Shown here: positions 11,136 to 40,210 of the stretch, in pieces
Position numbering within the stretch: the stretch's first letter is position 1
Layout: each line of letters opens with the position of its first letter
Source of the DNA: Verrucomicrobiota bacterium
GTDB taxonomy: Bacteria > Verrucomicrobiota > Kiritimatiellia > CAIQIC01 > JAGNIJ01
Reading direction: 5' to 3'
Length of the DNA stretch: 64,000 nt
NCBI GenBank assembly: GCA_036821485.1
Contig: DAISJM010000002.1
Location: forward strand, 3,771-67,770
Program-made: the position numbers and the translations under genes
The notes under the pieces: model-generated
Seen by the model: only the letters and a program-made list of their open reading frames with translations
The model's database searches: none
Told to the model about the DNA's origin: nothing

Positions 11136-13554
11136 TCGCCCCGGCCGACTCTGCATCGCGCCACGGTTTCGAGTCCTTGTAGCTCTCCACCATCTTCGCG
11201 AGCGTTGAGCCCGGCGCAAGCTCCTGCGCCCGCCCAGCCAGTTTCACAGCAGCTCCGAATTCGCCCACTTCGGCATGCGCCGCAGCTCGGACCGCCAGCA
11301 CCAGAGGATCCTTCTTATCGCTCAACCAGCCGGCCCGGTCCGCAAGTCGTACCGCCTCGGCGCCATTACGAACAGCGTCCTCCCGACACGTGGCGCGAAT
11401 CCACCCGAGAGCCACCAAGGCCGACGTCTGGTACGGAAGGTCCTGTAAGACATTCTCATACAGGTCGGCCGCTTCACGAAACTTGCCGCGCCGGACCAGG
11501 AGATCGGCCAACTTCTCCTTTGCACGCGCGAAGTGAGGCAACTCCTTCAACACAGCTTCGAGTCCATCACGCGCATCGTCCAACGCGCCCACGGCCAGCG
11601 CCAGCATCGCGCGGTTGTACAAGCCCTGCACGTTGCGTGGATGCTCGCGCACCACGCGCTCCAGCAAGGCGTAGGCATCGTCGAACCGGCTCATCGATGT
11701 GAAACTGCCCGCCAGGTTCACCTGCGCATCGACGTTCCGCGGATTAAGCTGCAGCGCGCGTTCGAAGAACGGCACGCTTGCGGGAATCGATCCAAGCCCC
11801 GCCAGCCTCGCCCCCACGCGGACAAAATCCCGATCGCGCCCACGCTTATCCACGCCCTCTTCCAAGGTTTGGAGAGCGGCGCCCCGGTCGCCCGCGCGCG
11901 CCTGCGCCTCCGCCAGTTGGAGCTTCAGATCGTGACACCACGGCGCGATTTCGCCGGCCGACTGCAGCACGGGTACCGCCGCCGCACCATCTCCGACGTC
12001 CATCAACAACCGCGCAAAATTCTGCCGCATCATCCAATCGTCGGGCCGCGCGGCCATCGCGCGTTGGTAAAGGTCCCTTACTTCATCGCCGCCCGCAGGC
12101 CGGGCCGCCCGCGCCTTCTCCTGCCACAGGTACACCGCTTCCTCGTTGAAGGCCTGCCGGATAAACGGCGCCCGCTTTGATCGCTCGCAAATCTCCAGGT
12201 ATGTCTTCGCTTCATCCGCGGCCGAAAACGCGATCTGTTCCTTGCACGCGTCCATCGACGGGACTGCATCCGACCCACCCAACCCCAACAGCAAGCCCAC
12301 GCCATCCAGCAGCCGCGATGCCACCCGGTAGTTGCCCTCGAACGAGAAATGTACGTGATCGAGGAAGACACCGTCCCCCAGCAACTCGGGGTCCTCGGTC
12401 AGGTTCAGCAAGGCGAATCGCGGCCGCGAGCAGTCGGACACCGCGAAGATGATCTCGTTGATCCGCGTATCGGCCCGAAACCGCAGCGCATCGAGATCAC
12501 GCGCCGCCTCATATTCCGCCATCGCGTCCTGCCCCAGTCGCTCCATGCACCGCGCACGACGATAGCGCAGCTCGGCATATTCATCATCCAAGCGACTCGC
12601 CTCATCATACGATTTCAGCGCGTCCTTCCAGTCGGCAGATGCCTCGCAGCTGGTTCCATCCGCCCACGCTTTTCCCCACGCCGCGAGGTCCGCTGCGGCC
12701 AGCCCGCGGCGATGCTGCGACGCAAACGGCGGACACACGCGCAGGTTCACCGCGACGGTGCACAGCAACACCCCTGCTTTTGCATCGCCGGCGAAACTCA
12801 TAATGTCGCGCAAGTTCGATTCAAAATGGCTGTAGGCCGCCTCCAACGCGGGATCGTCATGAGCCACCAGCGTCTGCGAAAACATCGAGAGCCCTTCCCA
12901 TTCCGGCAGGCCCCGATCGCCCTTCGCAAGCTGCACGCCGGCGTCGAGCAACTGCCCCACGCGCGTCGCGCGATAGAACATATTCGCGCGGATATACGGC
13001 AGGCTACCCGAGAACGTGCGGAACGTGGTCCCCGGCCCGTACGGCCCGAGGATCTCGTTGTTGCCCATGTAGATAACGAAGAGGTCCGGCTCCGCCTGGG
13101 CACAGGCACGCGCAATCTCACGCACCGCATGCGAGTTGATCGCCGTCATCGCGACATTGACCAGTTCCACCTGCGCGTCCGGATAACGCTCGCGGAGCAT
13201 CACGTCCAATATCCGCGTGAAACTGTAATTGCCGGCAGGGTCGCCAAGCGCCGCCGATTCGCCCAGCACAAAGACGCGGCGGACGCCTGCCGGTTTCGGG
13301 GTTTGCAGGGCCAAATCGAGCGGCGCGCGCGCAATGGCCCGCGGAAAGAACCGCCAGCCGAAACGCTCGTTGACGTGCAACACAGTCCTGCCGTCTGCCA
13401 GCCGCATCGGTACCAGAAAAGCCGAGGGATATCCCCATCCCGCGATGCGCAGCCCAATTTCGAGACAGCCCACCACCAAAGCCGGGGCGAGCAGCGCCAG
13501 AAGCGCCCGCTTGGCCCAAATTGCACCGCGTCCTGTCCGTCCGCCTGTCGTCAT
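11089..13554 (-). CDS. SGNH/GDSL-hydrolase-like N-terminal domain fused to a long TPR-repeat region
   Basis: 821 aa. N-terminal signal anchor, VFVLGESAALG and YMGNNE motifs typical of SGNH hydrolases, and many TPR-like repeats in the C-terminal two thirds. Its 3' end overlaps the rmuC 3' end by ~47 bp (convergent). Confidence 0.7.
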   Translation of the reverse strand: MTTGGRTGRGAIWAKRALLALLAPALVVGCLEIGLRIAGWGYPSAFLVPMRLADGRTVLHVNERFGWRFFPRAIARAPLDLALQTPKPAGVRRVFVLGESAALGDPAGNYSFTRILDVMLRERYPDAQVELVNVAMTAINSHAVREIARACAQAEPDLFVIYMGNNEILGPYGPGTTFRTFSGSLPYIRANMFYRATRVGQLLDAGVQLAKGDRGLPEWEGLSMFSQTLVAHDDPALEAAYSHFESNLRDIMSFAGDAKAGVLLCTVAVNLRVCPPFASQHRRGLAAADLAAWGKAWADGTSCEASADWKDALKSYDEASRLDDEYAELRYRRARCMERLGQDAMAEYEAARDLDALRFRADTRINEIIFAVSDCSRPRFALLNLTEDPELLGDGVFLDHVHFSFEGNYRVASRLLDGVGLLLGLGGSDAVPSMDACKEQIAFSAADEAKTYLEICERSKRAPFIRQAFNEEAVYLWQEKARAARPAGGDEVRDLYQRAMAARPDDWMMRQNFARLLMDVGDGAAAVPVLQSAGEIAPWCHDLKLQLAEAQARAGDRGAALQTLEEGVDKRGRDRDFVRVGARLAGLGSIPASVPFFERALQLNPRNVDAQVNLAGSFTSMSRFDDAYALLERVVREHPRNVQGLYNRAMLALAVGALDDARDGLEAVLKELPHFARAKEKLADLLVRRGKFREAADLYENVLQDLPYQTSALVALGWIRATCREDAVRNGAEAVRLADRAGWLSDKKDPLVLAVRAAAHAEVGEFGAAVKLAGRAQELAPGSTLAKMVESYKDSKPWRDAESAGAIIPGSRGSQAEPLVR

Positions 13555-13667
13555 GACGCCCTGTCAGTACCACATCCGGCACGCCAAGGTGAAGCCAAGG
13601 TTACGGCTCCAAACGCGAACTTTGTCGCTTGAGCCTGCCGGATTTACCCCCTATTCTACGCGCATTC

Positions 13668-14546
13668 ATGACGACTCCGATCATAGCTTTTGCAAATCAA
13701 AAGGGCGGCGTGGGCAAGACCACCACGGTCGTCAGCCTGGCCGCGTGCCTCGCCGAACGGCGCAAGAGGATACTCCTCGTCGACCTCGACCCGCAGGCCA
13801 ATGCCACCAGCGGCCTCGGCATGGAGAAGGTCGAGGGCCAAAGCATCTACCACGCACTCCTCGGCGAGAGCCCCGCGGAACCTCTCATCAAGTCCACCGC
13901 CATGGAGCGGCTCGACATCATCGGCTCGGAAGTCGATCTCGCCGGCGCGGAAGTGGATATCGCCCGCTCCGACCGATATCTGCATCGCTTCAAGGAAACG
14001 ATCACTCCTGTCGCCGACAGCGGCCGCTACGATTACATCTTCGTCGACTGCCCGCCCTCGCTGGGCATCCTGACCATGAACGCATTGACCGCCGCCGAGT
14101 CCATCATCATCCCTCTGCAGTGCGAATACTTCGCGCTCGAGGGCCTGAGCGTGATCACCCGACTCGCCGAGCGGCTGCGCGACAGCGGCGCCAACCCCGG
14201 GCTGCGCGTGGAAGGCATTGCGATGACGATGTACGACATGCGGACGAACCTCTCCCAGCAGGTCGTTCAGGAAGTGGTCTCCCATTTCGGCAATCTCGTC
14301 TACGAAACGCTCATCCCACGCAGCGTGCGCCTCAGCGAAGCACCGAGTTTCGGCAAGCCCATCATCCTCTACGACCGCAACTGCACCGGGTCCGCAGCCT
14401 ATCGCCAACTCGCCCGCGAATTTCTCGACCGTCGACGCATGGGAATCCCGGGCATGCCGGAAGAAGAAATCGTCGAGGAAGAATCCGAGCCCGTTGAGGA
14501 ACAGCCGGCAGAATCGCCGGCCGAAGACCAGCCGCCGGCGCAATAG
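13668..14546 (+). CDS. parA: ParA/Soj-family partition ATPase (orphan, no adjacent parB) with acidic C-terminal tail
   Basis: MTTPIIAFANQKGGVGKTTTVVSLAA... has the deviant Walker A KGGVGKTT. Soj-like throughout. The C-terminus is EEEIVEEESEPVEEQPAESPAEDQPPAQ. The alternative upstream ATG at 13629 is less likely. Confidence 0.85.
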   Translation: MTTPIIAFANQKGGVGKTTTVVSLAACLAERRKRILLVDLDPQANATSGLGMEKVEGQSIYHALLGESPAEPLIKSTAMERLDIIGSEVDLAGAEVDIARSDRYLHRFKETITPVADSGRYDYIFVDCPPSLGILTMNALTAAESIIIPLQCEYFALEGLSVITRLAERLRDSGANPGLRVEGIAMTMYDMRTNLSQQVVQEVVSHFGNLVYETLIPRSVRLSEAPSFGKPIILYDRNCTGSAAYRQLAREFLDRRRMGIPGMPEEEIVEEESEPVEEQPAESPAEDQPPAQ

Positions 14547-14647: not shown

Positions 14648-15208
14648 TCAGCCCGTCTCGAGCGCCTCGCGCGTTTCCTTCTTCAGCCGCTTGAGTTGAC
14701 CGGACAACGCGATGCGCTTGATGCGCGACATGCGGTCCACGAGAAGCACGCCGTTGAGATGATCGATTTCGTGTTGCGCCACGCGGGCCACGAATTTCTT
14801 CAACCGCAGTTCCTGCGGCTTGCCTTTGAGATCCAGAAATTGAACCGTCACTTCGACCGACCGCGACACCGGCGCATATATATCGGGGAAGCTCAGGCAC
14901 CCCTCGTCGGCCACTTCCTTCTCGCCTGAAAAATCGGTGATCTTCGGATTGACCAGCACCAGCGGCATCGTCACGCCCGGATTGAGTACAACCCCATCTT
15001 CGGAACGATCCATCTCCAGCGGCACTTCGATGACGCAAATCGCGTCGGTACTTCCCACCTGCTGGGCAGCCAACCCGACTCCCCGCTCGAGCCGCATGGT
15101 CTCGATCATATCCTTCGCCAGCGTGCGAATGTTGTCGTCCACCTCGCGAACCGGGACCGCCGGCTCTCGAAGGACCTCGTCGCCATACGTATGGATAGCC
15201 TTCTTCAA
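14648..15208 (-). CDS. def: peptide deformylase
   Basis: 186 aa with the conserved motifs GVGLAAQQVG, EGCLSFP and QHEIDHLNG. Confidence 0.95.
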   Translation of the reverse strand: MKKAIHTYGDEVLREPAVPVREVDDNIRTLAKDMIETMRLERGVGLAAQQVGSTDAICVIEVPLEMDRSEDGVVLNPGVTMPLVLVNPKITDFSGEKEVADEGCLSFPDIYAPVSRSVEVTVQFLDLKGKPQELRLKKFVARVAQHEIDHLNGVLLVDRMSRIKRIALSGQLKRLKKETREALETG

Positions 15209-15304: not shown

Positions 15305-16069
15305 ATGAACCGCATCCTGATCGTCGTACCGACCTATAACGAGAAGGAGAACATTCGCGAGATCGCGCAGGCCATTCTGGCCGCCTGCCCGCAAGCCAAT
15401 ATCCTTTTCGTGGATGATAATTCCCCGGACGGCACCGGCCGCATGGCCGATGAGATGAGCCAGGCCGACCAGCGTATTCAGGTTCTGCACCGCAGTGGCA
15501 AGCAAGGTCTGGGCCGCGCCTACCTTGCCGGTTTCAAGTGGGCCCTTGAGCGTGACTACGAATTCATCTTCGAGATGGATGCCGATTTCTCCCACAACCC
15601 GGCCGACCTGCCCCGTTTGCTGGAGGGCGCTCAGTCGGCCGACCTCGCATTGGGCTCCCGCTACATCGGCGGCATCCGCGTCATCAACTGGCCCCTGAGC
15701 CGGCTCTTCTTGAGCAAAGGCGCCGCCGTCTATGTCAGACTGATCACGGGGATGCCGTTCACAGACCCGACCGGCGGATTCAAGTGCTATCGCCGCGCGG
15801 TGCTGGAGACCATCAACCTGGAACATATCAAATCCAACGGATACTCATTCCAGATCGAAATGACACACACGGCATGGCGCAAGGGCTTCCACATCGTGGA
15901 GGTTCCGATCACGTTCGAGGAACGTCGCTCCGGTTTTTCGAAAATGAGTTCGCATATCGTACGCGAAGCGTTGTGGATGGTGTGGAAGTTGCTCCTTCGC
16001 TCGGGATTCCGGCGCAGCCCCGGCCAGCGCAACGCCCGAAGCGCTATCGCCCACGGAGCCCCGTCATGA
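15305..16069 (+). CDS. GT2 family polyprenol-phosphate mannosyl/glycosyltransferase (Dpm1-like)
   Basis: MNRILIVVPTYNEKENI...FVDDNSPDGT...EMDADFSHNP; Dpm1/Ppm1-like. Start chosen at the internal Met at 15305. Confidence 0.8.
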   Translation: MNRILIVVPTYNEKENIREIAQAILAACPQANILFVDDNSPDGTGRMADEMSQADQRIQVLHRSGKQGLGRAYLAGFKWALERDYEFIFEMDADFSHNPADLPRLLEGAQSADLALGSRYIGGIRVINWPLSRLFLSKGAAVYVRLITGMPFTDPTGGFKCYRRAVLETINLEHIKSNGYSFQIEMTHTAWRKGFHIVEVPITFEERRSGFSKMSSHIVREALWMVWKLLLRSGFRRSPGQRNARSAIAHGAPS

Positions 16070-16968
16070 GCAAGCCCTGGCTTCTCAGTCTCTTCCAAGC
16101 GCTGCGCCCGAAACAGTGGACCAAAAACGCGGTCGTGTTTGCCGCATTCTTCTTCGCGCTCGGCGACCGCAACCAACAGGTCGGCCTCGCCGCTTTCTGG
16201 ATTGCCGTGCAAGCCACGCTGCTCTTCTGCGTGGTCTCAAGCGGAATCTACCTCATGAACGACGTCCGAGATGCGCCGTGGGATCGCGCACACCCGACGA
16301 AGAAGTTTCGCCCCATCGCTGCGGGCGAGGTATCGCCCGCCGCAGCTCTCGTCGCCGCCGCCCTGCTCCTCGCAGCAGGCATGACCGGCGCGTGGTTCCT
16401 GTCGCACAACTTTGCCGCCGTTCTACTGTCCTACATCGGTCTGCAAATCGTGTACACGCTGGTGCTGAAGCAGGTCGTTCTGTTGGATCTTTTCGTCATC
16501 GCGGCCGGGTTCGTGCTGCGGGCCATGGCCGGCGCCGTCGCTGTCAACGTCACTATCTCGCCCTGGCTCCTGCTGTGCGCCATGTTGCTGGCCCTGTTCC
16601 TGGCCCTGTGCAAACGCCGCCACGAGAAGGTGGTCGTGGGCGACACCGCCGGCGAAACCCGGGCCAATCTCGGCCGATACGATGAGCGACTGCTGGATCA
16701 GCTCATCGCCGTGGTCAGCGCCGCGACGCTGGTCTTCTACGCGCTCTACACGCTCTGGCCCGATACGGTACAGAAGTTCGGCAACGCCCGGCTGGCATTC
16801 ACCATCCCCTTCGTCATCTTCGGCCTCTTCCGCTACCTCGACCTGGTCTACCGGCACGACAAGGGCGGCCACCCGGAACAAATCCTGCTCACGGATGCCC
16901 CCCTTCTGGTGGACCTCCTGCTCTACGGCGCCACCGTCTTCGTGCTCCTCTTTGTCGCCCACCCGTAA
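16066..16968 (+). CDS. UbiA-family prenyltransferase (decaprenyl-phosphate phosphoribosyltransferase-like)
   Basis: MSKPWLLSLFQALRPKQWTKNAVVFAAFFFA...; polytopic membrane protein with UbiA-type Asp-rich motifs; 4-nt ATGA overlap with the upstream GT2 gene. Confidence 0.75.
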   Translation: MSKPWLLSLFQALRPKQWTKNAVVFAAFFFALGDRNQQVGLAAFWIAVQATLLFCVVSSGIYLMNDVRDAPWDRAHPTKKFRPIAAGEVSPAAALVAAALLLAAGMTGAWFLSHNFAAVLLSYIGLQIVYTLVLKQVVLLDLFVIAAGFVLRAMAGAVAVNVTISPWLLLCAMLLALFLALCKRRHEKVVVGDTAGETRANLGRYDERLLDQLIAVVSAATLVFYALYTLWPDTVQKFGNARLAFTIPFVIFGLFRYLDLVYRHDKGGHPEQILLTDAPLLVDLLLYGATVFVLLFVAHP

Positions 16969-17092
16969 GTTTGTTGAACACCCCCGTTCCCGCGTTGTCG
17001 AAGGGGTATAAGTTCTTGACGGTAGGGCACTAAAAGCCATACCTTCCTGTGCTCACGGACTCGAAATAAGGGCTCTTTATCAGGCAAAATCT

Positions 17093-20000
17093 ATGGCCGT
17101 GTCTAATGTGAAGTCAAAACCGGCGCCGGCACCCGTTTCCCCGGAGAAACCGGCAGTTCCCGATCAACAAACCGGCGCCTTCTTTCGGCGCGTGGACTGG
17201 GCAGCTTTCTGGACCACCTTTCTGATCACCCTGGCGGTCTATGTCTATACTCTCGCGCCCACCGTCACACTCGAAGACTCGGGCGAACTCGCCGTCGGTT
17301 CGGATTACCTTGGCGTCCCCCATCCTCCGGGCTACCCCATCTGGACGCTGATCACATGGTTCTTCCAGTGGATATTCGGCTGGGTCCGCTACTACGGCCA
17401 TCCCAATCCTGCCTGGTCGGTCGGCCTTGCCTCCGCCTTCTTCGGCGCGCTGGCTTGCGGGCTGCTGGCCCTTCTGGTCTGCCGATCCGGCTCGGATATG
17501 CTCCGCAGCCTGAAGCGCACCACGGAGGTGCTCGGGTACCAGACAGAGAACTTCCTCTGCTGGGTTGGTGGCGTCGCGGGCGGCCTGCTGCTTGCCTTCA
17601 GCCCCGTCCTCTGGTCCCAGTCCGTAATCGTGGAAGTGTATGCCCTGAACGCTTTCTTCCAGGGCTTGATCATTCTCCTGGTCTACCGATGGATGTGTCG
17701 CCCGCGCGAGGATAGCATCCTCTATGCGACCGCATTCATCTTCGGTCTTGGCCTTACGAATCACCAGACACTCCTCTTCGTTGCCCCCGGATTGCTCGTG
17801 GCCATCTGGTTCCGCGACCGCCCTCTCTTCCGCGATTGCCTCGCCCTCTTGTTCTGGGCCGTGGCCGGGCTGATGTTCTGGAAGTCTTCACAGATAACCG
17901 GCGGCAACCTGAGCCCCGAGGCCCTGCGCGACAAGCACACGCAGATGACGCTCGGCCTGCTCTTCCTCGTCGCCCCGGTCGGCCTGTTCCTCATCGAACG
18001 CAAGCTTTTCACCGAGTGGAAACGCGTCATCATCGCTGCGCTACTGGTCGTGCTCGGCGTCTCCTTCTACGCCTATCTGCCGTTCTCGTCGGAACAGAAC
18101 CCGCCCATCAACTGGGGCTATCCCCGCACCCCCGAGGGTTTCTGGCATGCCCTCAGCCGCGGCCAGTATGAGAAAATCACCCCGGCCGACATCTTCACCA
18201 AGAAATTCCTTCTACAGGTGTCGTCCTACCTGGGCGACTTGCGCCAGCAGTTCACATTCCCCATCACACTGATCGGCCTCGTGCCCTTCTTCTTTATCCA
18301 CAAGATCGATCGGAAGACACGGACGTGGCTCTTCACCACGCTGATTTCATTCTTCTCGCTCGGCATCGTGCTCATCACCTTCCAGAACCCGCAGTTGGAT
18401 ATCCAGACGCTCTTCATCGGTCGCGTGCAATTCATCCAATCCCACGCCGTGTACGCCATCTGGCTGGGCTATGGCCTGCTGTTCGGGCTGGCCTTCGCCG
18501 AAGCCGCCCTTGGCGGACGCTTCGGTCAGGGCGAGAAGGCTCGGAAGCCGTGGGTCTTCGGCATCAGCCTCGCCTACCTCGTGCTGGGCACGCTGCTCAT
18601 CCTTAAGATCAGTGCTGCCGACGTCGCCGCGATCTGGACGATCTTCTTCATCCTGCTCGGCCTCACCATCATCGTGATCGTTTTCGGTCACCGCCAGGCC
18701 GCCCGTATCGCAGCCGTGGGTCTGGCCCTGCTCATTCCTCTCACGCTCATTTTCCAGAACGCCTACGATGAGGAGCAGATCAAGATCGTCGGCGGCGCCG
18801 AGCAGAATGGCCATGACTTCGGTTGGCAGTTCGGAAGCTGGGAACTCCAGGGCGAAGAAGGTATCCGCGAAAGCCTCAGCTACAAACGCTCGCCCGAGGA
18901 GTTCGAGAAGATCTGGGCAGACTATCCCACGCCCGGGTACCCGTTGCCGATGGACACCAACGCCATCTTCTACGGAGGCACCGATCCCGGCCGTTTCGTG
19001 CCGACCTACATGATCTACAGCGGCAAAGTCCGTCCGGACGTCTACCTCATCACGCAGAACGCGCTCGCGGACAACACCTACATGAGCGTCATGCGCGACC
19101 TCTACGGCGATACCATCTGGATACCCTCCCAGCAGGACAGCAACTACGCGTTCCAGAAATACGTCGAGGATGTGCAGTCAGGGCGCATCCCCGCCGGCGC
19201 CGAGGTACAGTTTGAGAACGGTCGCGTCAGCGTGCAGGGCGTGCAGGGCGTGATGATGATCAACGGCATCCTTGCCAAGATGATCTTCGAGGCCAACCGG
19301 CACAAGAACACCTTCTACGTCGAGGAAAGCTACGTCATTCCGTGGATGTACCCCTACCTCGAACCCCACGGCCTGATCATGAAGATCAACAACGAACAGC
19401 TCTCCAGCCTTACGCCGGAAATGGTGAACAACGACCGCAAGTTCTGGGACTGGTACACCAAGTATCTCATGGACAACCCCAAGTTCCTGCGCGACGTCGT
19501 TGCCCGCAAGACCTTCTCCAAGCTGCGCGGCGCCATCGCCGGTATCTATGCCTTCCGGCGCATGTTCCCCGAAGCCGAATATGCCTTTGTGCAGGCCATC
19601 GAGCTCTACCCGCTCAGCCCCGAAGCCAATTTCCGTCTCGCCGATGTTTACATGCAGCAGCGCAAATTCACCCAGGCGCGCGAACTCATTGAGCGCTTCC
19701 TCAAGGAAGATCCGGGCAACGACAAGGTCGAGGGGTTCCTCAACCAGATTCGTGAAACAGAAAATGCTGACGGCCGCCGTCAGGAACTCGAGCAGAAATT
19801 CTCCAGCGGTCAGGCCGACCTCAATGTCGCGCTGGAACTTGCCGACCTCTATCGCAAGCTCGCCATGGACGGCCCCTTCCAAGGGCTGACGACCAGCATC
19901 CTGAACGATACCAATGTTCCGGCCAACGTGTATCTCGCGGTGGCCAAACTGTTCGCAGACGCGAAGCGCGGCGACCTGCTCATCAATGCGCTACAACGCT

Positions 20001-20254
20001 ACCTCGCACGCGAACCGGCCAACCCGCGCGTGTGGATTGACCTTGCGGCGATCCAAGCCGGCATGCAGAAACCTGACGATGCGATTCAGTCTATTTCGCG
20101 CGCAGTCGAAATTGGCGGGGAACCCGCACGGGATATGGTTCGCAAGGATCGGCGGTTTGACGGGCTGCGCGACAACCCGAGATTCAAGGCCTTGGTGCCA
20201 CAGGCGGCGCAGTCTTTGCCCATCAGCCTCCCGGGCAATCTGCCGCTGTTCTGA
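17093..20254 (+). CDS. GT-C-fold membrane glycosyltransferase-like protein (DUF2723 / PMT-2-like N-terminal domain) with C-terminal TPR repeats
   Basis: 1053 aa. N-terminal half has 11 or more TM segments with YPIWTLITWFFQW and DxD-like motifs; C-terminal ~300 aa are TPR repeats. Paralogous to the gene at 23107-26322. Confidence 0.7.
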   Translation: MAVSNVKSKPAPAPVSPEKPAVPDQQTGAFFRRVDWAAFWTTFLITLAVYVYTLAPTVTLEDSGELAVGSDYLGVPHPPGYPIWTLITWFFQWIFGWVRYYGHPNPAWSVGLASAFFGALACGLLALLVCRSGSDMLRSLKRTTEVLGYQTENFLCWVGGVAGGLLLAFSPVLWSQSVIVEVYALNAFFQGLIILLVYRWMCRPREDSILYATAFIFGLGLTNHQTLLFVAPGLLVAIWFRDRPLFRDCLALLFWAVAGLMFWKSSQITGGNLSPEALRDKHTQMTLGLLFLVAPVGLFLIERKLFTEWKRVIIAALLVVLGVSFYAYLPFSSEQNPPINWGYPRTPEGFWHALSRGQYEKITPADIFTKKFLLQVSSYLGDLRQQFTFPITLIGLVPFFFIHKIDRKTRTWLFTTLISFFSLGIVLITFQNPQLDIQTLFIGRVQFIQSHAVYAIWLGYGLLFGLAFAEAALGGRFGQGEKARKPWVFGISLAYLVLGTLLILKISAADVAAIWTIFFILLGLTIIVIVFGHRQAARIAAVGLALLIPLTLIFQNAYDEEQIKIVGGAEQNGHDFGWQFGSWELQGEEGIRESLSYKRSPEEFEKIWADYPTPGYPLPMDTNAIFYGGTDPGRFVPTYMIYSGKVRPDVYLITQNALADNTYMSVMRDLYGDTIWIPSQQDSNYAFQKYVEDVQSGRIPAGAEVQFENGRVSVQGVQGVMMINGILAKMIFEANRHKNTFYVEESYVIPWMYPYLEPHGLIMKINNEQLSSLTPEMVNNDRKFWDWYTKYLMDNPKFLRDVVARKTFSKLRGAIAGIYAFRRMFPEAEYAFVQAIELYPLSPEANFRLADVYMQQRKFTQARELIERFLKEDPGNDKVEGFLNQIRETENADGRRQELEQKFSSGQADLNVALELADLYRKLAMDGPFQGLTTSILNDTNVPANVYLAVAKLFADAKRGDLLINALQRYLAREPANPRVWIDLAAIQAGMQKPDDAIQSISRAVEIGGEPARDMVRKDRRFDGLRDNPRFKALVPQAAQSLPISLPGNLPLF

Positions 20255-20375
20255 GAGAAGTTGTCATTCTGATGCCGCTCTTGCGGCAGAAGAATCTCGT
20301 CTTCGGATCTGGGCAACACGCCCTCGAGAGTGTCTTCTGTGGCCGCGACCGTGGGTCGCGGTTCGGCAGGACCGG

Positions 20376-21191
20376 TCACTCGCCCTGATGAATTTGCCGA
20401 CGCGGCATCACCATGCGCCGGCCCGCGTCAAGACTGACCACATCCACCGGGTGGGCATACACGCGCGACAGTTCCGCCGCTTCCATGACTTCTGCTGCCG
20501 CACCACGCCGCACCACACGGCCGTGATCCAGCAACACCAGATCGGAGCAGAACTCGGCCGCCAGATTCAGGTCATGCAGCGACATGACCACCGTGACGCC
20601 ATGGTTACGATTGAGATCACTGATGATTTCTGCCAGGTGCCACGCATGCTGGATATCAAGGTGTGCCGTGGGTTCGTCGAGCAACAGCATGGATGGTTCC
20701 TGCGCCAACGCCAACGCCACCAGCGCTCGCTGCCGCTCACCAGCACTGAGTTCGTCGACAAGCCGATCCTCAAACCCGATGAGGTCGGCCATTTCCAATG
20801 CCCGATGCACGGCTGAAACATCCTCCGGGGAAAGACGCTGCCAGCCCGAAAGGTAGGGAGTCCTCCCAAGCGCAACCAACTCTCCCACGGTGTACGCCAC
20901 AGGGATATCCACTCCCTGCGGAACCACCGCCAGCATCTGCGAGACCCCTCGCCGCGAGATATCGTCCAACAGCCTGCCGCAAATCATCACTCGCCCTTCT
21001 GACGGTCGGATGGACCCGCAGAGCACCCGCAGGAGAGTAGTCTTCCCGGCGCCGTTCGGACCTATGATGCCGGTCATCCCGCCAGCGGGAAGACACAACG
21101 ACACGCCCGTGAGCGCCTCGCGCTCTCCGTATAGCACGCGCACGCCACACGCTTCCATGGCTGCACCGCCATCCGTTGACATCACGTCCAT
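20376..21191 (-). CDS. ABC transporter ATP-binding protein (FecE/BtuD-like, iron-chelate/cobalamin type)
   Basis: Walker A GPNGAGKTT, signature LSAGERQR, Walker B LLLDEP. Start placed at MDVMSTDGG (21191); the longer track ORF has an Arg/Cys-rich N-terminal extension that looks like a GC artefact. Confidence 0.85.
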   Translation of the reverse strand: MDVMSTDGGAAMEACGVRVLYGEREALTGVSLCLPAGGMTGIIGPNGAGKTTLLRVLCGSIRPSEGRVMICGRLLDDISRRGVSQMLAVVPQGVDIPVAYTVGELVALGRTPYLSGWQRLSPEDVSAVHRALEMADLIGFEDRLVDELSAGERQRALVALALAQEPSMLLLDEPTAHLDIQHAWHLAEIISDLNRNHGVTVVMSLHDLNLAAEFCSDLVLLDHGRVVRRGAAAEVMEAAELSRVYAHPVDVVSLDAGRRMVMPRRQIHQGE

Positions 21192-22157
21192 ATTTCCCTC
21201 TGCTTGCGCCGTAGAAGAAGAAGAAAGAACGGGCCGCCCACGATGGCCGTAATGACACCCACGGGCACTTCCACCGGATAGAAGAGCGCACGGCCGAGAC
21301 CGTCGGCCAACACAAGAAAGGCCGCACCGAGAAACGCGGAGGCAATAATCAGGCGCCGATGCTCCGGGCCCACCAGGGCGCGGGCGGCATGGGGCACCGT
21401 CAGCCCCGCAAACGCAATGAGCCCGCTCACGCACACCGAGGCCGCCGTCATCAGCGCCGCCAACGCCAGCAGGATGATCTTCGTCTTCTCCGCATCCACA
21501 CCCGCATGTCCCGCCACCTCATCCCCCAACACCAGCACGTTCATTTCGCGCGCCAGGAAACTGCAGGCCAGCAGACTGAACAGCACCACGCCGCCCGCCC
21601 ACCCGACAAGCCGCGTGTCGAACACCTGCAGGTCGCCCAGAAACCACCAGAGAATCGCATGCAACCCTTCGGCTGAAGATTGGGAAACCAGGAACATCAG
21701 TATACTGCCGCAAAGAGAACTCCACACGACACCGGCAAGAATCAACGTCTGGGGTGCCGTGCGCCGCCCCACGCGGGCAAGCTGATAGACCGCCATGAGA
21801 CTCGCCACAGCCCCGACAAATCCTGCCGCCGGCAACGCCAACGCCCCCAGCGCCATACCCCCGCTAATGATCATCAGCGCAGTTGCAAGCCCTGCTCCGG
21901 AGGAGATGCCCAACACGTAGGGTTCGGCCAGGGGATTCCTCAGCACCGCTTGAAGGACGGCGCCGGATACCGCCAGCGAAGCACCAACCATGGCCCCCAG
22001 TGCTACGCGCCACAGACGTATGGCAAGAATACCACGATGTGCAGGCTCCAGAAGGGAAAGCGGATGCCTCCAACCCTCGCCGAGGAACACCCCCGCCCCC
22101 ACAACAAGCGGGCAAATCACCATCAACGTCCAGAACCATGTTGTACGTTCAGCTCTC
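21182..22157 (-). CDS. FecCD-family ABC permease (iron-chelate/cobalamin type)
   Basis: Polytopic; LGISSGAGLATALMII..., typical of BtuC/FecCD. Start placed at MRAERTTWFWTLMVI (22157). Confidence 0.85.
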
Positions 22158-22199
22158 ATGCGTATCACGGAATCAAAATCACGGAGACGGCGCGCCGAC

Positions 22200-23066
22200 C
22201 TAAGGGCTGTGCTGCATGAGCCAATCCGCAAAGGCCTCCGCGCCCTCGATCATGCGCGGCCCCGGCCGAAGCAGCCAATCCGGCGGTATCGTAGTGCAGA
22301 CCTTCCCGCTTTGCACAGCCCGAATCCTGTCCCAGCCCGGTCGCCGGGCAAGCCGTTCCGGTGCCGCCATCCCCGGCAACATGTAGGCCAGCAGGATCAC
22401 GTCAGGATCCTCGCGAATGACCCACTCCGAACTGATATGCACGTAACGACCCTTCAGGCCTTCCGCAATATTGTGCCCGCCGGCAAGCCCCACGAGATCG
22501 TGAACAAACGTCGCCCCGCTGACCGTAGTCAACGGATCGCCCCATACTTCCACGTACACCCGTAACTTCTCACGCCCGACAAAATACTTGGCCGTCCTGG
22601 AGGAGAGCGTGTCTCGCCGCGTCTCCATTTCCTTAACCCACTCCTCGCCGCGCGCGGGTTGTCCGAGTTCGCGACTGATCTCCCGCGCGGCGCTCATGAG
22701 GTCGGTCCACCCCTCGCACGGCAGGATGAGCACCCGGACCCCCATCTTCTCCAGCCGGTGAAGCGCCCCCGGCTTCTCAACATCCGTAGCGAGCACCACA
22801 TCAGGTTTGAGATTCTCCACCATTTCGAGCTGCGGCCGTCCGAACCCCCCCGCGATCGGAAGTTGGCACACCGACGGCGGGTAATCGCAGGCACTGGACC
22901 GGCCGACCAGGTGATCACCCAAACCGAGGGCGCACACAAGCTCCGTCAGGCTCGGGGCCAGGCTGACCACGCGAAAACAAACAACGTTCGTTTCGGCTTT
23001 GGAAACAACCGGCGGGAAAAGGCAGGCAAGAAGCAGCGCAAGAAAAAGCTGACGCACCAGGATCAT
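22200..23066 (-). CDS. periplasmic substrate-binding protein, BtuF/FhuD-like (class III SBP)
   Basis: Signal peptide MILVRQLFLALLLACLFPPVVSKA, then VVSLAPSLTELVCALGLGDHLVG, characteristic of cobalamin/iron-siderophore binding proteins. Confidence 0.8.
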   Translation of the reverse strand: MILVRQLFLALLLACLFPPVVSKAETNVVCFRVVSLAPSLTELVCALGLGDHLVGRSSACDYPPSVCQLPIAGGFGRPQLEMVENLKPDVVLATDVEKPGALHRLEKMGVRVLILPCEGWTDLMSAAREISRELGQPARGEEWVKEMETRRDTLSSRTAKYFVGREKLRVYVEVWGDPLTTVSGATFVHDLVGLAGGHNIAEGLKGRYVHISSEWVIREDPDVILLAYMLPGMAAPERLARRPGWDRIRAVQSGKVCTTIPPDWLLRPGPRMIEGAEAFADWLMQHSP

Positions 23067-23106
23067 AGAAGCCCAGCCACCCCAAGACTCCGGCGCGAAG
23101 AAGGCA

Positions 23107-26100
23107 TCAGGCCCCGCCGCGCAGGCGCTTGACCAGATTACGCAGTTCGTCGTACGACTCCGGCCTCAGCTGGCCAGGCCGCGCAAGAAGAGGATCCGCC
23201 AGCCGCAAAGCCTCCTCCTTCATGCCCCGCTTTTCATAGACTTGAGCCATGTGGAGATTGAACTGTGGATCTTCGGGCCGGAACGAAAGGGCCTTCTGAA
23301 TCGCCGCCTGTGCTTCGTCAGCCTTCTCCAGCTTCAACAGTACCATGCCCAGCGTATCCCACGCGGCCATGTGGCGATCATTGACCACGACGGCCTCACG
23401 TGCCAGCGCCAGCGATTCTTCGTAGCGGCCCTTGAGCAGAAGGAGCCAAGCCAAATCGTTGAGCGCGTCGGCGCTACGCTGCTTCTGCAGGCTGGCGCGG
23501 TAGGACGATTCGGCCAGCTCATATTCCTGACGCGAAAACTGAATGGATCCGAGGATATAGTTGGCCAACGCATTGTGCGGGTCCAACGTCAGCAAACGCT
23601 CGACGTGCTCTTCCGCTTTCTGACGAACGCCTTGGGTGACGTCGAGCTGCAGGAGCCACTCAAGTGCTGTGCGATTGTTCGGCTGAATACGCAACACGTT
23701 ATCGAGGTGCTTTCGCGCCCCGTCAAAGTCACGCTGCGCAAGCGCCAGTTGTGACAAGGTCAGCAGAATCTGCGGAGACTCGGTCGCCGCCGGTGTCAGA
23801 ACCGACAGGCATCTGTTTACCGTCTTTTCGTCGTTATCCTCGCTGGCCACCGCCGCAAGCAGCGTCCACGCCGACAAGTTCTTGGGATCTTCCTCAACGA
23901 GCTTCTGCAAGGTCGCTTTGCCGGCAGCTATATCTCCGGAAAGGACCTCAACCATGGCCTCGCGCAGGCGGATCAGTGCGGTAGGCGCGCCAATTTCCTT
24001 CAGCTTGGCGATTGTAGCACGGGCACTGTCGAAATCGCCTTTGCGCATGGCCACATCCAACAACCCGACAAGGGCCGTAGGATTCTCCGGATTGTCCTCC
24101 AGCACCTTGCCGTACAGATCACCGGGCTCGTCCTTCATGCCCTGCATAAGATAGAAGGATGCCATCGCCAGCGACGCCAGTTCCTTGTTGGCCCCCATAG
24201 CCACCGCACGCTGCATTTCGCTGATGGCCATGTTCGGCTTGCCCGACATAGCCCATGCCCAGCCGCGGTTCACAAACGCCTCCGGATTGCGAACATAGCC
24301 GTACGTCTGCGCAAGCGACCAAATGCGCAACCGCGAGCGAAGGCGGCCGGAGAAGTCATCGAACTCGGTCTTCAGCTCTTCCAACTCGGGCCGCGAATCC
24401 CTCTGCGCCACAGAGACCATGTTGAGCAGCGCGCTGACGTTATTCGTGTCGAGTTCCCGCGCTTGATGATAGGCTTCGAAGGCGAGATCGTTGCGGCCAC
24501 TATCCTCCAATGCTACCCCGAGGTTATTGGCCACCTTGCTGATGTGTCCAAGCGCCCAGCGACTCCAATCCGACACTGCACTGTCGGATGCAGCCGAAGC
24601 CTTCAGTTCTGCTCCGCACGTGTTCCAGAACTTCTCATGCTGAGAGAGCGCGGCCTCAGGATCAGGCAGTGTGGCGCTGGGAGCTCCAAGGAAGAGCACC
24701 TCCGCGGGGATGGGCACCTTGTTTCCTCCAAACCACAAATCGCTGGCCGCCAAGACCGCCAACTCATTCTCAACACCAGGTCGGCTCATCCATTCCGAGA
24801 CGAGGGGAATCATTCCCACCTGCGCAAGCCCTCTTAGCCGCGTGTCGTCCAGAAGCGAGGCCACGTAGCGGAGATAGGCGCCCAACCCCTGACCCATGTT
24901 GATGACATGAACCGGCACGTTCTGCTCATGCGCCGAAAGCACGATGAGATCATCCAACACCCCGTTGGAGAGCAGCCAAGTCCGCCCGCCGAGGCGCTCC
25001 ACAACCGCATCTGCAAAATCAGTCAAGGCGCGGCCCGTCCGACCATCAGCCGCTTTGACATTCAGCACAGCGCTCGCCGCAAAGAGCACAAGCAGCATGG
25101 GTATCAGCAGGGCTCGGCCCACACCTCGCAGAATCGATGCCGACCGCGCGTCAAACCGGCTGCGCTGCGCAAGGATGATGTACCAGTAGCCCACCAGGTA
25201 ACCTGTCCAGCAGGCCATGATGACATATGGCGTCACCAGCAGCGGGCGAAAGTGAAGCAGCGGCCACGGAGCGATGGGAATGTTGAACATCACAAGCACA
25301 GACAGAATACTCAGTAACGCGTGCAGAAACTGCGAGCCGTACACGGTGCTCCGCGTCATTGCGCGCTTGGGCGAGCCCACCACGATCATCCATGGAATCA
25401 CGCTCACCAACAGCACCATCAACCAGCCGATCTGCGGCATGCTGAACATGATCGTCCGGTACTGCTCCCTCCAGATGAACCAGAGGACCATGAAGTAGGA
25501 GTTAAATGCGCGCCACTCATAGGCCGGGTGCAGCCGATAAAGCCACGCGTGAATGAAGTAGACGGATAGACCCAACACGTAGAGCAGGACACACCGCGTC
25601 ACCGTGCCCGCTGTCAACGTCTTGGTTCGCCACATCGCCAACGCGAGCACAAACGCCATGAATGGAGCCAACACGATGAAGGTCGCAAACTCCGTGGTCG
25701 CCAAACCGTACAGCAATACGAATGCATTGAGATGACTGCTCTTCCCTGTCTCCTGAAAACTCATCAGCAGGCGAACGCTGAGCAGGAGCAGAAACACATC
25801 GAATGCCGCCGTATGTGCGCGGGTCGATACAATCCAGAACGGAACACAAAGGGCCAGATACAAGCCGGCGACAAGGCCGGAGATCGTGGCGGGAGCATCC
25901 GCAGGAAACCGCGATTCCACTTCTTCGGCCGTGCGGTTGTGAGGAATACGGGAGACGATTCCGTAGAGCAGCCAAACAGCACCCGCTCCGCAAAGCGCGC
26001 TGAAGAAGTTCAGACGCAACGCGATATCGAAGATCGGGATTACGCCGAGAAGCCGCACCGCCAGGAAATACAAAGGATGCGACATCGGGGGGAACGGATC

Positions 26101-26322
26101 CAGCCCCAGATGCTGCACCATCAGGCGGGCTGATTCACCGGGCGCAGCCGTACGGCTCAACGTCAACAAGTAGACCACCAGCGAAAGCGCAAACAGCCAC
26201 ACGCCGGCCGACCTACGCGAGTTCTTCAGAATACGGTCAATCTTATCGAACATGGCTGCACATGTTAAAGGAAGAGGCCCAATGAGGCAACGCTCATGTG
26301 TGAGGACAGACGCGGGCCGCAC
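23107..26322 (-). CDS. GT-C-fold membrane glycosyltransferase-like protein (DUF2723-like) with C-terminal TPR repeats; paralog of 17093-20254
   Basis: 1071 aa; N-terminal polytopic domain, C-terminal ~450 aa of TPR repeats. The true start may be the internal Met MFDKIDRIL. Confidence 0.7.
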   Translation of the reverse strand: MRPASVLTHERCLIGPLPLTCAAMFDKIDRILKNSRRSAGVWLFALSLVVYLLTLSRTAAPGESARLMVQHLGLDPFPPMSHPLYFLAVRLLGVIPIFDIALRLNFFSALCGAGAVWLLYGIVSRIPHNRTAEEVESRFPADAPATISGLVAGLYLALCVPFWIVSTRAHTAAFDVFLLLLSVRLLMSFQETGKSSHLNAFVLLYGLATTEFATFIVLAPFMAFVLALAMWRTKTLTAGTVTRCVLLYVLGLSVYFIHAWLYRLHPAYEWRAFNSYFMVLWFIWREQYRTIMFSMPQIGWLMVLLVSVIPWMIVVGSPKRAMTRSTVYGSQFLHALLSILSVLVMFNIPIAPWPLLHFRPLLVTPYVIMACWTGYLVGYWYIILAQRSRFDARSASILRGVGRALLIPMLLVLFAASAVLNVKAADGRTGRALTDFADAVVERLGGRTWLLSNGVLDDLIVLSAHEQNVPVHVINMGQGLGAYLRYVASLLDDTRLRGLAQVGMIPLVSEWMSRPGVENELAVLAASDLWFGGNKVPIPAEVLFLGAPSATLPDPEAALSQHEKFWNTCGAELKASAASDSAVSDWSRWALGHISKVANNLGVALEDSGRNDLAFEAYHQARELDTNNVSALLNMVSVAQRDSRPELEELKTEFDDFSGRLRSRLRIWSLAQTYGYVRNPEAFVNRGWAWAMSGKPNMAISEMQRAVAMGANKELASLAMASFYLMQGMKDEPGDLYGKVLEDNPENPTALVGLLDVAMRKGDFDSARATIAKLKEIGAPTALIRLREAMVEVLSGDIAAGKATLQKLVEEDPKNLSAWTLLAAVASEDNDEKTVNRCLSVLTPAATESPQILLTLSQLALAQRDFDGARKHLDNVLRIQPNNRTALEWLLQLDVTQGVRQKAEEHVERLLTLDPHNALANYILGSIQFSRQEYELAESSYRASLQKQRSADALNDLAWLLLLKGRYEESLALAREAVVVNDRHMAAWDTLGMVLLKLEKADEAQAAIQKALSFRPEDPQFNLHMAQVYEKRGMKEEALRLADPLLARPGQLRPESYDELRNLVKRLRGGA

Positions 26323-26461: not shown

Positions 26462-26507
26462 GCCACAAAAGCAAGAGCCCCGCCCTGCGTTAGCAGGACA
26501 GGGCTCT
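26462..26507 (-). terminator. putative rho-independent terminator downstream of the PEP-CTERM gene
   Basis: Imperfect 15-bp stem AGAGCCCCGCCCTGC/GCAGGACAGGGCTCT (13 of 15 pairs) with a GTTA loop at 26474-26507. On the minus strand it is followed by CTTGCTTTTGTGG. Confidence 0.5.
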
Positions 26508-26526
26508 CAGATCACTTTGGTTCAAA

Positions 26527-27102
26527 TTACTTGGCAAAGCGGCGACGGAGGACCATCACCAACGCGCCAAGACCCATGAACGCCCACGTAGCCGGCTCAG
26601 GAACCGCTTCATACGAATTCGCATTCAATGTCTCGCCAAAACCTGTGGTCGTAACATCGATGTTGTAATCGATCGGAGTATATGGCGCCGTCATGTCCGT
26701 AGTATTTGTCGTATAACCATTGAAATACCACATGCCCTGTGTAACGGCTGTGGGGCTTCCAACATCGAATACGCGGACATAGTAGTAGCCGGAAACGAAG
26801 GATTGCGTGTACTGCGGCGCGATGAAATTGGCCCAGGGACTGGCCGTAATGGTGAAATCCGCCCACCACTGATCATCGCCACCGACATAATGCGGATCGG
26901 AGGCATCCGGCAAATCAATGGTCCCATTAGCCCCGCAGAAGATCAACTGAGCCAAAGCCGATCCGCCAGCGTTCAGCAAGCCATTCGGATAACTTGTGTG
27001 CCCAAAAAAACCATCAAGGGACATCCATGTCGTCCCAATTTCGGCCGTCGCAAGCGAGGCCCCCACCGCCACAATCAACGCCACCAGAGCGATCTTCTTC
27101 AT
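26527..27102 (-). CDS. PEP-CTERM sorting-domain secreted protein
   Basis: N-terminal signal peptide; C-terminus VPEPATWAFMGLGALVMVLRRRFAK matches the PEP motif, TM helix and basic tail of PEP-CTERM. Confidence 0.85.
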   Translation of the reverse strand: MKKIALVALIVAVGASLATAEIGTTWMSLDGFFGHTSYPNGLLNAGGSALAQLIFCGANGTIDLPDASDPHYVGGDDQWWADFTITASPWANFIAPQYTQSFVSGYYYVRVFDVGSPTAVTQGMWYFNGYTTNTTDMTAPYTPIDYNIDVTTTGFGETLNANSYEAVPEPATWAFMGLGALVMVLRRRFAK

Positions 27103-27161
27103 CTAATCTCCTCCTGTACTTTACGTTCTCGCCATTATGCGCACAAATACCAGCCAGCCTG

Positions 27162-27869
27162 TTACGGCCAAGTGTAAGGTTTGCTTTCGACCCAATCAAC
27201 CGACTGCGTCGTCCTCACCCAGAAAGCCTGCCCAGGATGTATCACCAAATCAGCCGCCCCATCCCAGACGCCACCGCGAGGATTCTTGGCGTATGGTCCC
27301 AAATACTTATTTGATTCAGAAGACCAAATATAGAGCAGCGAGTTAGCGGGCAACTTCTTGGCCAAATCTGTGTTCGTCCAAGCGGTGTCCACGGGATAAG
27401 GATACCCCAATATGTTCAGTCCAAAGATGCCATCCACCGTGGTGGTGGGAGCTGTGCTCCTGTCGGGAACTTCACCCATCATGAAGACGGGGTAGCTGTT
27501 GGAGGCCGCGCTCTCTGGAATCTTAATCCAAAATCCTTCGCCACGGCACAGGAGATTGGATCCCCCAACACCCCAGCCGCCACGTGGATCGCGAGCAACA
27601 GTCGTCTTATATGTCCTGGTGTCGTAGTTCCAAAGATAGAGGAGCGTCGCAGACGGAAACTGAGTTGAATCAAGCAGGTTTGACAGCACTGTGCAACCAC
27701 CTTGACTGCCATCCATGGATTCAAAATCGAGCCGAACAAGGGCAAACTTGCCTCTCTCTGCATCGACCTTCACGTACCCCACCGCGTTGCGGCTGAGTAC
27801 TTGGGTCTGACCAAAGGCCAGCGTACCAGTCACGACCACCGCCAGCATCACCAGAACCATTCTTTTCAT
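27162..27869 (-). CDS. hypothetical secreted protein
   Basis: Start at MKRMVLVMLAVVVTGTLAFGQ (signal peptide); no recognisable domain; upstream of and co-oriented with the PEP-CTERM gene. Confidence 0.55.
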   Translation of the reverse strand: MKRMVLVMLAVVVTGTLAFGQTQVLSRNAVGYVKVDAERGKFALVRLDFESMDGSQGGCTVLSNLLDSTQFPSATLLYLWNYDTRTYKTTVARDPRGGWGVGGSNLLCRGEGFWIKIPESAASNSYPVFMMGEVPDRSTAPTTTVDGIFGLNILGYPYPVDTAWTNTDLAKKLPANSLLYIWSSESNKYLGPYAKNPRGGVWDGAADLVIHPGQAFWVRTTQSVDWVESKPYTWP

Positions 27870-27984
27870 GACGAGCCTCCCAATGGTGAATTCAGTTTTG
27901 CCGATATTCTTACACCCTGTCGAGAGCAAAGTATAGAACACCCGCGTTTATCCACTCATCGACAGTAGTAAGTTACCCATGCGC

Positions 27985-35207: not shown

Positions 35208-35253
35208 GTTGTATCCGTTATGCGGCCGGCTCGAAGAATCCCCGCGCGCGGGA

Positions 35254-37086: not shown

Positions 37087-37127
37087 TGGATTCCAAGTTC
37101 CAGGTTCCTAATTTCAAGTTCTGCCTG

Positions 37128-38009: not shown

Positions 38010-38026
38010 GACGACGCTCCGACGGG

Positions 38027-38641: not shown

Positions 38642-38645
38642 GAAA

Positions 38646-40209: not shown

Positions 40210-40210
40210 T

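Follow-up and report, generated by a model that had tools for sequence, protein, structure and literature searches.

Do three adjacent genes of a Kiritimatiellia bacterium encode a route by which sugars are loaded onto a lipid carrier and transferred to proteins of the cell envelope? The question was raised by a stretch of 64,000 nucleotides from a metagenome-assembled genome (MAG) of this class (GCA_036821485.1, contig DAISJM010000002.1, positions 3,771 to 67,770; about 61% G+C), which we call the window. It carries the genes of a GT2-family glycosyltransferase (GT2), a UbiA-fold protein (UbiA) and a large membrane protein (GTC1), followed by an ABC importer and a second large membrane protein (GTC2). 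All seven genes listed in the initial annotation were recovered in place when open reading frames and Pfam families were checked. They are not chance reading frames because their Pfam scores are far above the curated cut-offs, because proteins 100% identical to GTC1 and UbiA occur on public contigs named Kiritimatiellia bacterium, and because GTC1 has more than 3700 homologues at E ≤ 1e-10. We give about even odds, i.e. a probability near 0.5, to the reading that GT2, UbiA and GTC1 act together in glycosylation outside the cytoplasm, as a module that is conserved among Kiritimatiellia, Lentisphaerota and related 'Verrucomicrobia' MAGs. In this reading GTC1 moves mannose, and possibly a sugar derived from ribose as well, from the lipid carrier onto envelope proteins.

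The family of GTC1 was established by several comparisons. GTC1 scored 120 bits against PF11028 (TMEM260-like; gathering cut-off 24.2), and as a single sequence it matched human TMEM260 (PDB 9rql) with an E-value of 5e-18. A profile of 56 sequences matched 9rql with an E-value of 1.1e-23 over chain residues 32-408, i.e. the whole membrane domain. The protein is laid out as a membrane domain (aa 30-558, all borders approximate), a periplasmic alpha/beta domain (560-815) and a TPR domain (815-1035). The first periplasmic loop, TLEDSGELAVGSDYLGVPHPPGYP, is nearly identical to that of human TMEM260 (DSGEL...HPPGYP). D62 of GTC1 aligned with the catalytic D52 of TMEM260, whose exchange for Ala inactivates the human enzyme (PMC10214176), and was invariant in 56 of 56 homologues, as were E61, E65 and the HPPGYP stretch. 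The alpha/beta domain of about 250 aa contains the long invariant motifs GGTDPGRFVPTYM, LITQNALADNTYM and YVEESYVIPWMYPYL; a fourth stretch of the profile match aligned it with TMEM260 faintly and without significance. The initial annotation had described the 1053-aa protein as a DUF2723/PMT-like GT-C enzyme fused to TPR repeats and had raised the loss of the catalytic Asp as a possible objection. The PF11028 and 9rql matches, the intact Asp and the TPR repeats bear the description out. Thus GTC1 is a TMEM260-family GT-C protein with an intact catalytic Asp and a predicted transferase.

Homologues of GTC1 are widespread. Identity was 50-72% over about 1000 residues among the homologues listed, which came from Kiritimatiellia, Lentisphaerota and 'Verrucomicrobia' MAGs. 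With two invariant 8-residue motifs, relatives were picked up in the genomes of at least 589 GTDB species, most of them Kiritimatiellia, Pontiellaceae, Lentisphaerae/Victivallales and 'Verrucomicrobia' MAGs. Conservation this strong in so large a family suggests a core envelope function. An insertion of about 70 aa at aa 477-545 (approximate positions), predicted to form two extra transmembrane helices, was shared with P0011 only among the aligned homologues.

The structural comparison called for at the outset identified a GT-C fold in GTC1, with AftB, AftA, AftD and EmbA as structural relatives; Pmt4 and AglB scored nearly as high as ArnT. ArnC/ArnT and RgtE/RgtA-D are pairs of a GT2 and a GT-C enzyme, and the GT2-GTC1 combination follows the same logic. 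By analogy GTC1 would glycosylate lipid A or the lipopolysaccharide core, peptidoglycan or exopolysaccharide, and its TPR domain would be a periplasmic scaffold; one GTC1 orthologue in fact lies in an exopolysaccharide/exosortase locus with Bac_transf, GT4, EpsH and EpsI. We regard such an acceptor as unlikely. The sequence of GTC1 matches TMEM260 only, ArnT has hardly any lead over the protein glycosyltransferases Pmt4 and AglB in structure, and the TPR fusions encountered among characterised GT-C enzymes are the protein O-mannosyltransferases TMEM260 and TMTC1-4 (PMC10214176). The module also differs from GtrABC and ArnC-ArnT by a GT2 that is far nearer to dolichyl-phosphate mannose synthases (DPMS; see below), by the TPR repeats of its GT-C enzyme and in that no GtrA-like flippase was found among the window genes scanned.

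The start codon of the UbiA gene overlaps the stop codon of the GT2 gene, the sequence reading ATGA, which is the 4-nucleotide overlap noticed earlier. UbiA scored above the cut-offs of two NCBIfam models for decaprenyl-phosphate phosphoribosyltransferases (NF008977, 251.2 bits against 234; NF008978, 216.1 against 207) and matched Rv3806c of M. tuberculosis (PDB 8j8j) with an E-value of 2.7e-39, free of gaps over the catalytic half. For Rv3806c 13 ligand-binding residues have been shown (PMC10994848); they contact Mg, the lipid phosphate and, in phosphoribosyl pyrophosphate (PRPP), the pyrophosphate, the ribose and the 5'-phosphate. UbiA has eleven of these 13 unchanged, and the eleven are invariant across its family: R22, K28, Y70, N73, D77 and K87 of Rv3806c are R14, K20, Y62, N65, D69 and K79 of UbiA, and R90, Q135, Y138, K143 and K191 are R82, Q127, Y130, K135 and K183. 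Y157 is replaced by F, a change reported in some mycobacteria as well, and K208 aligned with A200, which adjoins the invariant R199. Ordinary UbiA prenyltransferases do not conserve the positions that bind phosphoribose (PMC10994848). The initial annotation had named the protein a prenyl/phosphoribosyltransferase; equivalog scores, structural match and binding residues point to a phosphoribosyltransferase of the Rv3806c type (PPPRS). Because these scores were reached and 11 of the 13 PRPP-, Mg- and lipid-binding residues are kept, UbiA should make polyprenyl-P-ribose-5-phosphate.

The closest solved relative of GT2 was the DPMS of Pyrococcus furiosus (5mlz; E-value 1.9e-34, 122 bits). In the same PDB comparison ArnC reached only 49 bits (E-value 4e-12), and no match to GtrB was detected at E < 0.001. 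Thus the proposed Dpm1-like character of GT2 held, and a grouping with ArnC or GtrB, which would have spoken against it, was not seen. The residues discussed in the DPMS structure paper were mapped onto GT2 via the 5mlz alignment. D89, D91, H94, R117, R131 and S135 of DPMS correspond to D92, D94, H97, R119, R133 and S137 of GT2, and F177, R202 and K208 to F182, R207 and K213; all nine residues are invariant in 73 orthologues. GT2 thus contains the DxD motif (D92-A-D94) and the equivalents of the acceptor-phosphate triad R117/R131/S135, which is 'conserved in bona fide DPMSs' and difficult to locate in GtrB (PMC5526996). H97 is the equivalent of the mannose-contacting His of DPMS, and at two mapped positions GT2 differs from the archaeal enzyme (Q93 to S, K178 to Q). 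Human DPM1 has the same two states there. GT2 has no transmembrane domain, as is the case for DPM1 and mycobacterial Ppm1. From these likenesses GT2 is most likely a soluble polyprenyl-phosphate hexose synthase of the DPM1/Ppm1 type with mannose as the predicted sugar.

Conserved gene order ties GT2 and UbiA to GTC1. The arrangement of the window, a divergent peptide deformylase gene (Def) followed by GT2-UbiA-GTC1, recurred in loci L001, L002/L003, L008 and L092 with differing flanks and a GTC1 identity of 55-60%. Of the 54 GTDB species loci with enough upstream sequence, about 15 have GT2-UbiA as the genes next upstream of GTC1, among them loci of Lentisphaerae and Victivallales (14 were scored; L043 had been missed by the distance filter). 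Viewed from UbiA in metagenome contigs, GT2 directly precedes it in 57 of 60 loci and, across a gap of about 500 nucleotides, in two others, while GTC1 was immediately downstream in 26 and separated by one gene in another two. The codons of GT2 and UbiA usually overlap or nearly abut. Because GT2 precedes UbiA in 59 of 60 loci, the two are a near-obligate pair, and GTC1 is its only recurrent partner. L091 contains GT2-UbiA without GTC1. In L059, where UbiA is missing, GT2 is followed directly by a GTC1-like gene; this links GT2 itself to the GT-C enzyme. Thus the combination of a lipid-linked donor and a GT-C transferase, which the initial annotation had seen in the neighbourhood, is supported by the enzymes identified and by their synteny.

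The three genes could also be neighbours by descent only, with no common pathway. GTC1 stands alone in most species loci, and the genes downstream of GT2-UbiA are heterogeneous apart from GTC1, as such an explanation would have it. On the other hand, adjacency is kept down to about 40-45% identity of GTC1, in Kiritimatiellia as well as Lentisphaerae/Victivallales and with changing flanks, and the three gene products are biochemically complementary. Thus descent alone appears very improbable to us, and we read the association of GT2-UbiA and GTC1 as a real functional one in which gene order is not obligate.

A consistent third partner that would replace GTC1 after GT2-UbiA did not emerge from the loci without it. 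There the pair was followed by a gene for a TrmB-like methyltransferase (seven loci), Bac_transf, an MsbA-like ABC exporter, GNAT, Rnf or PFOR. The exporter, a possible flippase candidate, was seen in a single locus (L122, 5950-7788). Likewise a single locus had a Bac_transf phosphoglycosyltransferase gene overlapping the stop codon of UbiA (L119, 2050-3462). Downstream of the GTC1-like gene of L059, a Verrucomicrobia MAG, lies the gene of a protein of 1090 aa (10821-14093, plus strand) that has an HNH_4 domain at its centre and is about the size of Cas9.

For the module we propose the following course of events. At the cytoplasmic face two translationally coupled enzymes would load the polyprenyl phosphate carrier, GT2 producing polyprenyl-P-mannose (or another hexose derivative) and UbiA using PRPP for polyprenyl-P-ribose-5-phosphate. 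The loaded donor would be flipped across the membrane by some flippase. In the periplasm GTC1 would transfer the sugar, and its donor would most likely be the polyprenyl-P-mannose of the adjacent GT2. The acceptors are most likely Ser/Thr residues of envelope or secreted proteins, which would be chosen by the periplasmic domain of GTC1 and its TPR repeats. We infer a protein acceptor because GTC1 is homologous to TMEM260, a protein O-mannosyltransferase that uses dolichyl-phosphate mannose, and because both have the common GT-C-plus-TPR design (PMC10214176).

The likeness to TMEM260 comprises the Pfam family, the first loop, the catalytic Asp and a C-terminal extramembrane region with TPR repeats (9rql; PMC10214176). 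In contrast to TMEM260, GTC1 is bacterial, about 350 aa longer and equipped with the strongly conserved 250-aa alpha/beta domain. Furthermore, it is genetically coupled to a phosphoribosyltransferase that has no counterpart in the TMEM260 pathway.

Several points weigh against mannosylation of envelope proteins by this route. GT2 did not reach any NCBIfam equivalog cut-off (best scores AglJ, 61 bits against 325; ArnC, 52 against 529; PpgS, 46 against 370). For this reason no sugar was assigned, and mannose is only the most likely one. No recognisable solved relative of the alpha/beta domain of GTC1 was found. In more than half of the loci GT2-UbiA and GTC1 do not lie next to each other, and we therefore call the link recurrent, not obligate. 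Accessory genes were looked for among about 36 genes of the window: there was no DprE1/E2, no 5'-phosphatase of the PAP2 or HAD type and no epimerase, and neither a GtrA nor a MATE flippase. The searched literature held no glycoprotein or lipid data for these organisms. Finally, a pathway that uses mannose only does not account for the near-obligate pairing of GT2 with UbiA.

The coupled GT2 and PPPRS may cooperate on one product or glycan, which the TMEM260-type enzyme would then put onto envelope proteins or proteins sorted by PEP-CTERM. GT2 may add a hexose to the 5'-phosphate of polyprenyl-P-ribose-5-P. The product may be an unprecedented lipid-linked phosphodiester donor, the formation of which would need no phosphatase. 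Alternatively, mannose and a pentofuranose may be laid down jointly on proteins. We consider cooperation of either kind quite improbable. If true, it would be a core and possibly essential trait of the cell envelope in this group and would point to a bacterial origin of the animal TMEM260 O-mannosylation pathway.

The phosphoribosyltransferase may also be the enzyme that supplies GTC1. In the three-component systems of the Kelly/Whitfield type pentofuranoses are added outside the cytoplasm, in C. youngae by ORF15 (PPPRS), ORF14 (MATE flippase) and ORF12 (GT136 GT-C enzyme) (PMC11127046). Experiments have established systems of a PPPRS and a GT-C enzyme in Gram-negative bacteria; in P. aeruginosa, TfpW arabinosylates pilins (PMC11127046, PMC11194591). 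The module resembles them by a PPPRS gene beside a GT-C gene and by the proposed extracytoplasmic sugar addition. Were the module built in this way, GTC1 would draw on polyprenyl-P-ribofuranose or a derivative, and a further donor made by the DPMS-like GT2 would go to a different GT-C enzyme, encoded elsewhere in the genome. The position of UbiA immediately upstream of GTC1 and its PRPP-specific residues, all of which are kept, are in line with this, as are the Gram-negative precedents. Yet the PPPRS of the module, with its 300 aa, consists of the UbiA domain only and has no fused HAD phosphatase domain. A MATE flippase, a phosphatase or an epimerase was not among the window genes scanned, and the GT-C enzyme, by its PF11028 match, is of the TMEM260 type with TPR repeats, whose characterised member uses dolichyl-phosphate mannose. 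The DPMS-like GT2 is extra to the three components. In addition, L059 combines GT2 with a GTC1-like gene without UbiA, and L091 has GT2-UbiA without GTC1. On balance we hold a pentofuranose donor for GTC1 to be conceivable but unlikely; together with the lipopolysaccharide or polysaccharide acceptor it is the chief competitor of the proposed reading.

The arabinan-type synthesis mentioned in the initial annotation, i.e. a decaprenylphosphoryl arabinose (DPA) pathway, was rejected. It is unsupported locally because DprE1/DprE2 and phosphatase genes were missing among the window genes scanned. Otherwise the mycobacterial systems for polyprenyl-phosphate mannose and DPA share three elements with the module, namely a polyprenyl-P-mannose synthase (Ppm1), a phosphoribosyltransferase of the Rv3806c type and a GT-C enzyme. 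They differ in that the window has no Rv3807c-like gene either and in that GTC1 belongs to another GT-C family and carries TPR repeats. The source organism, unlike the mycobacteria, comes from a lineage of the PVC group that is Gram-negative (diderm).

The module follows the logic of the known periplasmic systems of lipid carrier and GT-C enzyme but stands apart from them on three counts: its GT-C protein is of the TMEM260 type with TPR repeats, a DPMS-type GT2 is coupled to a PPPRS, and a linked flippase, phosphatase or epimerase was not among the window genes scanned. Taken together, the module probably glycosylates envelope proteins. Its linkage to a DPMS-type enzyme and a PRPP-dependent lipid phosphoribosyltransferase provides a concrete and testable glycosylation route and would broaden the recently defined periplasmic pentofuranose systems. 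In the literature searched there was no study of bacterial DUF2723/PF11028/TMEM260-like proteins, which are mentioned only as 'distant homologs'. To our knowledge, protein or envelope glycosylation of such kind has not been studied in this bacterial group. Only in 2023 was TMEM260 itself found to be a protein O-mannosyltransferase (PMC10214176).

The second large membrane protein, GTC2, scored 49.4 bits against PF11028 (cut-off 24.2). Profiles of the GTC1 and GTC2 families aligned in hhalign with a probability of 99.8% and an E-value of 6.6e-28 at 18% identity. Of the two paralogous giants described initially the homology was thus retained, but it is long-range only, and GTC2 represents a separate, faster-evolving family of proteins of about 1050 aa with 311 cluster representatives at E ≤ 1e-30. 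(A word-indexed search with the N-terminus gave five homologues and was replaced by an exhaustive search of representatives.) Where GTC1 has the catalytic Asp, the GTC2 of the window has Glu. Across 138 family members this alignment column held Glu in 58, Asp in 15 and non-acidic residues in 65 (among them 9 L, 8 A, 8 R, 6 T and 6 Q); the register of the GTC1/GTC2 alignment at this column was confirmed by hhalign. The loss of the catalytic Asp, a possible objection to GT-C function from the start, therefore applies to GTC2 at the family level. The second loop acid of GTC1, E65, is R in GTC2 and variable in its family, the GTC1 motifs SQS..EVY.LN and GLGLTNHQ are replaced, and GTC2 has a smaller version of the conserved alpha/beta domain and a longer TPR array. 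An AlphaFold2 model of GTC2 from six sequences (pLDDT 71.5, pTM 0.45, loop 1 below 50) was too poor for the active site to be read from it and did not enter the fold search. Judged by these changes GTC2 is a paralogue that has diverged and whose catalytic loop is relaxed; it may be a partner that lacks catalytic activity or acts in another way.

Genes for an unknown protein of about 235 aa, a PEP-CTERM protein and GTC2 occur in the same order in the window, L001 and L094; the PEP-CTERM and unknown secreted proteins span 26527-27941 (minus strand) in the window, 17081-18399 in L001 and 3859-5220 in L094. In addition, the GTC1 orthologue of L089 directly follows exosortase genes EpsH/EpsI. TMEM260-like/TPR proteins may thus be linked to exosortase sorting, and the position of GTC2 beside PEP-CTERM protein genes is a hint of such a tie. 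The best NCBIfam match of the GTC2 TPR array was the PEP-CTERM system lipoprotein PrsT, with 140 bits and below the cut-off.

Between the two large proteins lies the importer (20376..23066), which had been described as btuFCD-like and as bracketed by them. The genes are present, but they are not a fixed part of the module because nothing separates the two giants in L001, where both are directly convergent and synteny with the window extends over the rest of the region. Thus a btuFCD-like importer as a fixed component was ruled out. Scores against the BtuFCD equivalogs were below the cut-offs (BtuC, 241.6 against 461; BtuD, 118.9 against 281; BtuF, 80.9 against 234). By family it is a type II ABC importer as predicted from sequence, and no substrate was assigned because all NCBIfam equivalog cut-offs were missed. 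In 6 of 55 species loci FecCD/ABC genes lie right beside a GTC1 orthologue, with two orientations represented; FecCD/ABC_tran genes were seen by GTC1 orthologues in L090 (13332-15121), L011, L013, L029, L009, L033, L046 and L092. Some of these adjoining genes are on the same strand, 38 nucleotides downstream of GTC1, and come without a binding-protein gene. We take the importer to be a unit apart from the glycosylation module.

The features of the locus are collected in Table 1. The first GTG of GTC2 at 26322 would yield 1071 aa, while public gene calls start at 26253 and yield 1048 aa.

Table 1. Genes and other features of the GT2-UbiA-GTC1 locus; coordinates refer to the window.
Feature	Position	Strand	Basis
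Peptide deformylase (Def), divergent, left neighbour of GT2-UbiA	14648..15208	-	conserved context
GT2, predicted DPM1/Ppm1-type synthase, 254 aa	15305..16069	+	Pfam Glycos_transf_2, E 2.6e-29
UbiA-fold PPPRS (predicted), 300 aa	16066..16968	+	Pfam UbiA, E 1.6e-23
GTC1, TMEM260-family GT-C with TPR, 1053 aa	17093..20254	+	PF11028, E 1.3e-34; TPR repeats
ABC ATPase	20376..21191	-	Pfam ABC_tran
FecCD permease	21182..22123	-	Pfam FecCD
Periplasmic binding protein	22200..23066	-	Pfam Peripla_BP_2
GTC2, 1048 aa	23107..26253	-	PF11028, E 5.9e-13; long TPR array
Putative terminator-like hairpin, 17-bp stem, between PEP-CTERM gene and GTC2	26472..26509	-	consensus scan
PEP-CTERM secreted protein, 191 aa, upstream of and co-directional with GTC2	26527..27102	-	Pfam PEP-CTERM, E 8e-6

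To the left the peptide deformylase gene is followed by ParA. To the right of GTC2 are the genes of the PEP-CTERM protein, the unknown secreted protein, a CHASE histidine kinase, a LuxR-type regulator, PlsY and GpsA. An 821-aa TPR protein (11089-13554) was dismissed as a part of the module, as it had no synteny outside this genome.

Further features of the window were seen in passing. The GC skew was negative in all 2-kb bins from 1 to 64000, so that there is no switch like that of an origin or a terminus. A 336-aa protein with an N-terminal IS200-like Y1 transposase domain (5935-6945, minus strand) adjoins a 475-aa protein (7476-8903, minus strand), for which public gene calls give a TEN/YD-shell domain. 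In a 1009-aa protein (32265-35294, minus strand) an MFS-like membrane region and a spermidine/spermine synthase domain are joined. Finally, a sulfate-activation cluster with a CysN-type GTPase fused to an adenosine-phosphosulfate (APS) kinase domain and a CysD-like protein of the phosphoadenosine-phosphosulfate (PAPS) reductase family adjoins an NMT1-type ABC transporter (35254-41263, minus strand).

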